Shown one piece after another: positions 34,477 through 36,292 of a DNA stretch of 64,000 bases. The notes under the pieces were generated by a model. The model was not told the origin of the DNA. It saw only the letters and a program-made list of their open reading frames with translations, and did no database searches. The stretch covers positions 146,276 to 210,275 of the forward strand of contig CAZAYU010000001.1 in assembly GCA_964489445.1 (NCBI GenBank), in the 5' to 3' direction. The first letter of the stretch is position 1; every line of letters begins with the position of its first letter. The stretch comes from an uncultured Planctomycetia bacterium (GTDB taxonomy: Bacteria > Omnitrophota > Gorgyraeia > Duberdicusellales > 4484-171). The position numbers were made by a program, and so were the translations under genes.

Positions 34477-36292
34477 TAGCCACCCCCTTTTTCTTAGCTT
34501 TACGACTTATCCATTTCCCCCGCTTTATATAATGGGTGTGCAAAAGCTTATGACTCATATGCCCACAAGGACCATCTGTCAAAAATTCCTTATATATTTG
34601 TTTGACTATTGGATTTTCGTGAGATTTCCTAATCGGTAACCCTTCATCCTCAGCATAGATAGCCTTAGCTCTAGCTTCCCGAATCTCCGGATTTGTCGGA
34701 ATAGGCTGCCCACCACCGCCTAAACAACCTCCGGGACAAGCCATAATTTCCACAAAATGATACCCGTTTAATTCTCCCCGGCAAAGCATATCCATTATTT
34801 TTTTAGCATTAGCAGTGCCGTGACCAACCATAACCTTTAAGACTGCCCCCTCTAAAAACTTCCACTCAGGTACTGCTTTTTTAATCGGTATCTCCGCTCT
34901 ACGAACCCCTTCTGTGCCTCTTACCGCTTCAACACGTAATTTTTTAAATGGTACCTCTTCACCAGTAACTATCTCATAGGCTGTTCTGATTGCCGCCTCC
35001 ATAACTCCTCCGGTTGCCCCAAATACTAATCCTGCTCCACTGCCAATACCCAGAGGATCATCAAAGTTAGAATCAGGCAAGTTGGGTAAATCAATACCAC
35101 ATTCTTTAATCATTCCGGCTAACTCCCGAGTAGTTAGTGTATAATCAACATCTTTAAACCCAGAACTATTCATCTCCGGCCGAGTACACTCAAATTTTTT
35201 TGCCGAACAGGGCATTAACGAAACGCTAACAACATCCTTAGGGTCAATATTGTTGCGTTGAGTATACCAAGTCTTGACAATAGCTCCAAACATTTGCTGA
35301 GGCGATTTACAAGTCGAAACATGCCCTAATTTTTCCGGATAAAAATGCTCTATATACTTTACCCAACCCGGAGAACAAGATGTAATCTGGGGTAAACATA
35401 TATTTTTATCTTTGTCAACTAAAGCTTTCTTGAGCCGCAAAAGCAATTCGGTCCCTTCTTCCATGATTGTTAAGTCAGCAGTAAAATTAGTATCAAAAGC
35501 CTTGTTGAAGCCGATTCTTTTAATAGCTGTATTAAGTTTCTTGGTCACACTTGTTCCTGGAGGCAAACCAAATTCTTCACCAATTGCCGCTCGCGGTGAA
35601 GGCGCAGTTTGAATAATTACATGTTTCTTAGGGTCATCAATGGCATCCCAAACTTCTTGGGCTGGATCTTTAGACTTTAAAGCACCTGTAGGGCAACGAT
35701 TAATGCATTGCCCACAATTAATGCATATTACTTCATTAAGCGGCATATCCTGATAGGTTTCTATCTTCGTTTCTGCTCCACGATGTGCAGCCTCCAATAC
35801 TCCCACTTCCTGAAGATCAATACATGTTCTTGCGCAACGTCGACAAAGAACACATTTATTCATGTCGCGCTCTACAGAATAGCTTGATACATCTTTTTCA
35901 TAACGCGGACTATCAATATGTCCAAATTTATAGGTGGTTACTCCATACTCCTTAGCTAACGCCTGGAGTTCACAATTATTATTTCGCGCACAGGAATAAC
36001 ACTCACCATAATGATTTTTTAACAACAGCTGGATAATATTGCTCCGGGCTCTCCTAACTTTAGGAGAGTACGTCCGAATCTTGATTGACCGAAATATCGG
36101 ATACGAACATGAAGCTTGAAGCGTTCGTTCACCTTCTACCTCAACCATACACACTCGACAGACTCCTGCAAGGCAAAGATCATCGTGTTGGCAAAGAGTA
36201 GGAATCTTAATATTTACTGATTTAGCAGCTTCCAAAATAGTAGTACCAACCGGAATCTTAACCTCAATATCATCAATAACAACTTCGATCAT
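34466..36292 (-). CDS. hydA: [FeFe]-hydrogenase catalytic subunit HydA (M3-type: 2Fe-2S + FeS domains + H-cluster)
   Basis: N-terminal 2Fe-2S [9 protein letters not shown] and ferredoxin motifs [11 protein letters not shown] and [11 protein letters not shown]. H-cluster motifs L2 MPCSAKKFE and L3 [16 protein letters not shown]. L1 is TSCSPGW, which is non-canonical. The ORF track extends to 36505, overlapping hydB. The likely true start is ATG 36292 ([20 protein letters not shown]), preceded by a GGAAAGAAGGA RBS-like sequence. Confidence 0.85.
   Translation of the reverse strand: [608 protein letters not shown]

Follow-up and report, generated by a model that had tools for sequence, protein, structure and literature searches.

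HydABC of Acetobacterium woodii, an [FeFe]-hydrogenase that bifurcates electrons (PDB entries 7Q4V, 7Q4W and 8A5E), carries a serine in its catalytic subunit HydA1 at the position where the usual first H-cluster motif (L1 or P1, TSCCPxW) has its second cysteine. In the electron cryomicroscopy (cryo-EM) structure this residue, Ser301, was modelled as a ligand of cluster A1, and the enzyme displayed the canonical Hox, Hred, HoxH and Hhyd states in Fourier-transform infrared (FTIR) spectra together with normal activity (Katsyv et al., 2023; PMC10021017). The same L1 motif, TSCSPGW, is shared by trimeric NuoE/F-linked hydrogenases of the Melainabacteria ACD20 (Di Rienzi et al., 2013; PMC3787301), and the passage of Kertess et al. 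(2017; PMC5855289) that cites Winkler et al. (2013) puts serine at the position equivalent to residue 300 of the Clostridium pasteurianum enzyme CpI in ∼20% of putative hydrogenase sequences. The serine variant is thus already known as a natural alternative within group A; the literature offers a structure, spectroscopic data and an estimate of how frequent it is. In this study, a hydA gene with an L1 motif of this type was analyzed in a 64 000-nucleotide stretch of DNA (hereafter the window) from an uncultured bacterium placed by GTDB in the Omnitrophota (contig CAZAYU010000001.1, positions 146 276–210 275; assembly GCA_964489445.1). Its product is very probably a catalytically competent group A [FeFe]-hydrogenase in which Ser340 serves as a natural ligand of the [4Fe-4S] subcluster, most likely within a non-bifurcating enzyme dependent on reduced nicotinamide adenine dinucleotide (NADH).

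Direct reading of the minus strand bore out what the initial annotation had reported, namely an L1 motif TSCSPGW with the serine codon TCT at plus-strand base 35373, accompanied by canonical L2 and L3 motifs (Table 1). The patterns MPCxxKxxE (L2) and ExMxCxxGCxxGGGQP (L3) are both present in HydA, whereas L1 departs from TSCCPxW with its two cysteines in that the relay cysteine is kept and the ligand cysteine is replaced by serine. In the Melainabacteria ACD20, in contrast, two of the hydrogenases lack an L3 cysteine that is intact here. The residues of HydA were numbered against a sequence of CpI, the monomeric, ferredoxin-linked prototype of group A with the L1 motif TSCCPGW; this sequence matches the published residues C299, C300, S319, K358, C355, C499, C503, E279 and E282. 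Cys339 is equivalent to the proton-relay cysteine of CpI, Cys299, and Ser340 to CpI Cys300, which ligates the [4Fe-4S] subcluster of the H-cluster. Residues S359, C361, C395, C552 and C556 correspond to CpI S319, A321, C355, C499 and C503, and equivalents of E279, E282 and R286 are present as well. By alignment, all of the proton-pathway residues (the equivalents of CpI C299, E279, S319, E282 and R286) are found in HydA, the H-cluster pocket matches that of CpI except at position 300, and the M3 layout of the F-domain is the same; the difference lies in Cys300/Ala321 of CpI versus Ser340/Cys361 of HydA.

Among solved structures, HydA was best matched by HydA1 of A. woodii and of Thermoanaerobacter kivui, in each case a subunit of an electron-bifurcating HydABC complex. 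HydA and A. woodii HydA1 are 49% identical over the H-cluster domain (H-domain), have an identical L1 motif aligned without gaps, and share L2, L3 and domain architecture; when this alignment was used to recalculate residue numbers, the outcome (Ser301 in A. woodii and Cys299 in T. kivui) agreed with the structural paper. The serine therefore does not move away from the ligand position after gap adjustment, a case that the initial annotation had kept open, and the Ser ligation proposed there as one option gains support from the assignment of the identical motif as containing the Ser301 ligand. By analogy with A. woodii, the oxygen of Ser340 would bind an iron atom of the [4Fe-4S] subcluster, so that serine would make up one of its four protein ligands in an otherwise standard H-cluster pocket. 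Cys339 would relay protons to the bridging amine of the azadithiolate (adt) ligand via the conserved Glu/Ser/Glu/Arg path, and electrons would run through the F-domain clusters to the flavin mononucleotide (FMN) of HydB and NAD(H).

The serine is invariant among close relatives. The motif TSCSP[GA]W was found in 120/120 of the nearest proteins (the best 120 among 5.8 billion; 75–100% identity, mostly from Omnitrophota metagenome-assembled genomes). When GTDB was scanned with a single genome for each species, 80 orthologous loci emerged (63–83% identity), labelled as Omnitrophota, Ignavibacteria including Melioribacter, Firestonebacteria, Latescibacterota and several others. In these, serine occupies the L1 ligand position in all 80 orthologues, encoded by TCT in 27, TCA in 26, TCG in 18 and TCC in nine; 36 of the 80 codons are a single transversion from a cysteine codon, and there are no reversions. 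Because the codons drift synonymously while the residue remains invariant, purifying selection on the serine is indicated. Judged from this codon record, the serine is a fixed, selected character of the whole orthologous clade, which spans the Omnitrophota, the Ignavibacteria and other phyla.

For a broader sample, 1.84 billion representatives at 50% identity were searched exhaustively with HMMER, and the 150 best H-domains were taken. Among the 138 representatives with a recognizable L1 motif, 23 (17%) were of the Cys–Ser (CS) type and the rest were of the Cys–Cys (CC) type. On a neighbour-joining tree of 142 H-domains, calculated with numpy, 14 Cys/Ser changes were counted by the Fitch method (12–17 over 100 bootstraps, compared with 21–27 for shuffled labels), although such trees are crude and lack support at their deep nodes. 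As far as these sequences tell, the Cys/Ser switch, which takes a single nucleotide change, has clearly recurred many independent times and is not the mark of one lineage. The representative search also returned a predicted protein of 4122 amino acids (P0121) with seven tandem H-domains, each with TSCCA[SG]W (Ala in place of the L1 Pro) and LS[ST]CKSPM, which may be a genuine poly-hydrogenase or else a tandem array whose genes were fused in the gene model.

The initial annotation was correct in describing HydB as short. The protein consists of the Complex1_51K and NADH_4Fe-4S domains only, without the N-terminal [2Fe-2S] and C-terminal 2×[4Fe-4S] domains, and aligns to residues 173–552 of the 626-residue HydB of Thermotoga maritima. 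Non-bifurcating hydrogenases have been distinguished by a HydB without additional Fe-S domains, by Thr/Ser and Lys/Ser/Ala at T. maritima positions 232 and 234, by Tyr replacing Phe near the FMN and by the absence of GGPSG from the SLBB domain (Losey et al., 2020; PMC7311640). All of these features are seen in the window HydB. The extra Fe-S domains that are present in the bifurcating T. maritima HydB are absent; Thr and Lys (DEGEPGTFKDR) stand at positions 232/234 instead of Ala and Met (DEGDPGAFMNR), Tyr (GSGAYVCGEE) instead of Phe (GAGAFVCGEE) near the FMN, and GGASG (VQVGGASG) instead of GGPSG in the SLBB motif. The hallmarks of electron-bifurcating HydABC (a long HydB with extra Fe-S domains, GGPSG, Phe and Ala/Met) are thus missing from it. 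Exactly the same combination of a short HydB with T/K, Tyr and GGASG is found in Ignavibacterium album (YP_005845236, 409 amino acids), which is listed as predicted to be non-bifurcating (Losey et al., 2020), and the subunit set HydC, HydB and HydA is that of the non-bifurcating, NADH-dependent hydrogenases, among which are the biochemically characterized Syntrophomonas wolfei Hyd1ABC and Syntrophus aciditrophicus HydAB and the predicted I. album enzyme. Since a short NuoF-like HydB is combined with a NuoE-like HydC, the enzyme most likely belongs, by these sequence signatures, with S. wolfei Hyd1ABC among the NADH-dependent hydrogenases that do not bifurcate. It differs in this respect from the electron-bifurcating A. 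woodii enzyme, the HydB of which has ∼600 amino acids and extra Fe-S domains, whereas that of the window has 416 and non-bifurcating signatures.

The gene order hydC–hydB–hydA is kept in 73–78 of the 80 loci. The 80 HydB-like reads, which include five long HydB proteins from second clusters, show all three signatures in 59 cases and, in 16 more, those that the search patterns could read; the HydB encoded 5' of the orthologues has 390–430 amino acids, or 554–575 where it is fused to HydC, with the same signature wherever it is readable. In four loci (L023, L026, L033 and L034) HydB has 554–575 amino acids, with ∼210–220 residues preceding the FMN motif, and from its sequence appears to be a HydC–HydB fusion similar to that in Syntrophus aciditrophicus HydAB. 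Five other loci (L009, L011, L018, L025 and L030) contain a second hydrogenase cluster ∼1.2–5 kb downstream of the hydA match. The HydB of this second cluster is long (about 581–611 amino acids), with GGPSG, Phe and ten C-terminal cysteines, and the cluster has the look of a bifurcating-type paralogue that accompanies the NADH-only one. Next to the long HydB, L011 and L030 also yielded a canonical TTCCPSW HydA, so that in those genomes the serine belongs to the short-HydB paralogue.

Several observations weigh against a serine-ligated, NADH-dependent enzyme. The same substitution at the same ligand position has been engineered in Chlamydomonas HydA1, in which C114 and C115 correspond to CpI C299 and C300; the C115S variant retained only a small amount of [4Fe-4S] cluster and lacked the [2Fe] subsite (Kertess et al., 2017). 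Given that an engineered serine largely loses the cluster whereas natural scaffolds tolerate it, a natural serine must depend on its context. However, a scan of all alignment columns for association with the serine revealed no convincing co-variation (best p = 3e-5 before correction), and the weak tendencies that were seen (Ile for Phe before the Thr of the motif, Gly after its Pro and Gly in the L3 sequence EIMxC) do not survive multiple-testing correction or phylogenetic non-independence. The proposed ligation by the serine oxygen is carried over by homology from a cryo-EM assignment in the ∼3 Å class, and an AlphaFold model calculated from a shallow alignment of 20 close homologues was of low confidence (mean pLDDT, the predicted local distance difference test score, of 58.6) and lent no geometric support. 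Furthermore, as the serine is also found in the bifurcating A. woodii enzyme, it says nothing by itself about an NADH-only function.

Among the alternatives, the one that best withstands the evidence is a shift of register, in which Cys339 would ligate the [4Fe-4S] subcluster, Ser340 would not be a ligand and some other group would deliver protons in an altered mechanism. The neighbouring cysteine has indeed been suggested as a possible substitute ligand in an alanine variant (Kertess et al., 2017), and cryo-EM at ∼3 Å cannot rigorously tell oxygen from sulfur ligation. Such a shift is nevertheless distinctly unlikely: Ser301 of A. woodii was modelled as the ligand in an enzyme whose canonical FTIR states and normal activity depend on the cysteine relay, and replacement of the relay cysteine by serine inactivates other [FeFe]-hydrogenases (PMC11376134). 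The remainder of the proton pathway is also conserved in the window HydA.

Departures from the canonical L1 motif are typical of the sensory [FeFe]-hydrogenase groups, and the initial annotation had considered a sensory or group C-like enzyme. That the enzyme has a sensory or regulatory role like HydS (group C/D), or that its catalysis is crippled in some other way, is very unlikely here, although the adjacent rex gene and TM1266 'regulator' gene might also speak for it. The domain order of HydA is that of the M3 architecture, with Fer2_4 ([2Fe-2S]), NADH-G_4Fe-4S_3 (a His-ligated [4Fe-4S] cluster), 2×[4Fe-4S], Fe_hyd_lg_C and a small-subunit-like C-terminal Fe_hyd_SSU, and no PAS or other signalling domain was found in HydA by the domain search. 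The catalytic domains matched PF02906 (1.5e-84, over the full profile, 1–245) and PF02256 (4e-24), and HydA scored 486 bits against TIGR02512 (cut-off 406). The best NCBIfam match was NF040763, 'NADH-dependent [FeFe] hydrogenase, group A6', with 815.5 bits (cut-off 765) over profile positions 1–571 of 571. Moreover, the partner subunits are NuoE/NuoF-like, the relay cysteine and the proton pathway are kept, and the A. woodii enzyme of the same serine type is fully active.

Still less credible is a relocated ligand, in which Cys361 would replace the lost cysteine as the fourth ligand of the cluster. The downstream cysteine that the initial annotation had described as gained is real; however, it appears to be a gain only if CpI, with Ala321, is the sole comparison. 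A. woodii HydA1 likewise combines its serine with a cysteine at this position (SSCKSPQ), as relocation would have it. Against this, cysteine at the CpI-A321 position occurs in 58/112 CC-type and 16/27 CS-type H-domains of the representatives (Fisher p = 0.53), so that it does not co-vary with the serine. The position is occupied by Ala in 75, Cys in 44 and Thr in one of the nearest 120 proteins, and by Ala in 64, Cys in 17 and Ser in one of the 82 L1-containing HydA reads from the 80 loci (80 Ser-type orthologues and two CC-type paralogues). In addition, TSCCP occurs together with STCKSPQQ in the structure of HydA2 from the hydrogen-dependent CO2 reductase (HDCR) of T. kivui. A cysteine that is common and varies freely at this position is not a compensating ligand, and as a general mechanism relocation is refuted by the Ser-type orthologues with Ala. 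Finally, a sequencing or assembly error, suspected earlier because TCT and TGT are separated by a single base, or a decaying pseudogene has a negligible probability: the serine is present in 200/200 independent relatives (120 proteins and 80 loci) with all four TCN codons, which rules out the error, and the 641-codon open reading frame (ORF), the remaining motifs, the partner genes and the maturase genes are all intact.

Table 1. Features of the hydrogenase locus in the window, in minus-strand order (positions in the 64 000-nucleotide stretch; aa, amino acids).
Feature	Position	Strand	Description
Sigma-70-type promoter	38795-38822	minus	TTGACA, 16 nt spacer, TATAAT; 12/12; upstream of rex
rex	38146-38763	minus	Redox-sensing repressor, 205 aa; Pfam Put_DNA-bind_N + CoA_binding; NF003995 198.8 bits, cut-off 126
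hydC	37636-38112	minus	NuoE-like thioredoxin-like [2Fe-2S] subunit, 158 aa; PF01257 1.4e-44
hydB	36384-37634	minus	Short NuoF-like FMN/NADH subunit, 416 aa
hydA	34466-36391	minus	[FeFe]-hydrogenase catalytic subunit, 641 aa; start ATG at 36391
L1/P1 motif	35363-35383	minus	TSCSPGW, residues 337-343 (ITSCSPGW in context); read from sequence
Cys339 codon	35375-35377	minus	TGT; read from sequence
Ser340 codon	35372-35374	minus	TCT; middle base is plus-strand 35373
Cys361 codon	35309-35311	minus	In VSTCKSPQQ; read from sequence
L2/P2 motif	35189-35215	minus	MPCSAKKFE, including Cys395; canonical
L3/P3 motif	34703-34750	minus	Includes Cys552 and Cys556; canonical
CMD/AhpD-like CxxC protein	34132-34476	minus	114 aa; PF02627 1.5e-11; CxxC motif KCPVCIPRAVENCLRCGW
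TM1266-family protein	33760-34011	minus	Putative iron-only hydrogenase system regulator, ACT-like, 83 aa; PF21699; TIGR03959 102.5 bits, cut-off 60.8
Aspartate ammonia-lyase-like protein	32331-33731	minus	Inside maturase cluster; NF008909 537 bits, cut-off 510
hydF	31073-32347	minus	Maturase GTPase/scaffold; HydF_tetramer, HydF_dimer, MMR_HSR1
hydG	29596-31098	minus	Radical-SAM maturase; Radical_SAM + BATS; syntenic in related loci
Probable hydE	28568-29566	minus	Radical-SAM maturase; Radical_SAM; syntenic after hydG in related loci

The start of hydA is most likely the ATG given in Table 1 rather than the TTG of the mechanical ORF, as suggested by the sequence AAGGAG ∼10 nt 5' of the ATG, the overlap of the ATG with the hydB stop codon, orthologue lengths of 633–641 amino acids and the near invariance of N-terminal residues 7–18 among orthologues. 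HydA accordingly has an N-terminal extension of ∼33 residues before the [2Fe-2S] domain (36293–36391, minus strand; beginning with MNKERPFAQSTSRTPVSQRRF), in which F7, T11, S12, R13, P15, S17 and Q18 are nearly invariant. Solved HydA structures align with the window HydA only from the [2Fe-2S] domain onward, and the extension may be a subunit-contact peptide.

The first gene behind the perfect sigma-70 promoter, which is likely to be the start of the transcription unit, is rex; the hydrogenase genes would be transcribed together with it and would be followed by their own maturases. The H-cluster maturase set downstream of hydA comprises hydF, hydG and a probable hydE. The operon had been called Rex-controlled in the initial annotation. 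A rex gene does adjoin it; however, the Rex operator consensus TTGTGAAN4TTCACAA with up to three mismatches was matched seven times in the whole window, compared with 7.1 expected by chance, and not near the operon, so that the proposed control follows from gene adjacency only. Between the promoter and the rex ATG (38764–38794, minus strand) lies a partial palindrome, AATCGTTCTGAATTTCACGATT, with the half-sites AATCGT...ACGATT, which could be a divergent operator.

Translation of the CMD/AhpD-like protein is probably coupled to that of HydA, as its gene begins 11 nt ahead of the hydA stop codon, and a homologue follows hydA in 12 of the 80 related loci. With 48 bits (cut-off 120), the protein was a weak match to the 'arsenosugar biosynthesis-associated peroxidase-like' model; its role may be one of redox protection. 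The genes for the TM1266-family protein and the aspartate ammonia-lyase homologue lie between hydA and hydF/hydG/hydE; they were seen again in 12 and seven related loci, respectively. Directly upstream of the hydrogenase operon (38860–47589, minus strand) there is a run of lipopolysaccharide-core-type genes, including three GT9 heptosyltransferase-like genes, an ORF of the size of a polysaccharide deacetylase, GT4 glycosyltransferases, a GT4–GT9 fusion (694 amino acids) and a lipid A acyltransferase–ELM1 fusion (601 amino acids).

As a discovery the serine carries little weight, as the variant is documented and the protein falls within a curated annotation family. For annotation and motif-based screens, it follows that hydrogenases with TSCSP are not to be dismissed as defective or sensory. 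The complete fixation of the serine in a large clade that spans several phyla and comprises probable NADH-only hydrogenases provides a natural test set for the accommodation of an oxygen ligand and for redox tuning of the H-cluster. This question appears to have been barely explored, as a natural serine ligand of the H-cluster is discussed in one paper of the literature searched. A doubtful but conceivable reading is that the serine is not neutral: an oxygen ligand would shift the potential of the [4Fe-4S] subcluster and the catalytic bias, and the serine would hence have become fixed in the short-HydB (NADH-only, 'A6') clade, tuned for the production of H2 from NADH at very low H2 pressure. 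If this were true, the 12–17 independent Cys/Ser switches would represent repeated adaptive retuning of the enzyme rather than drift.

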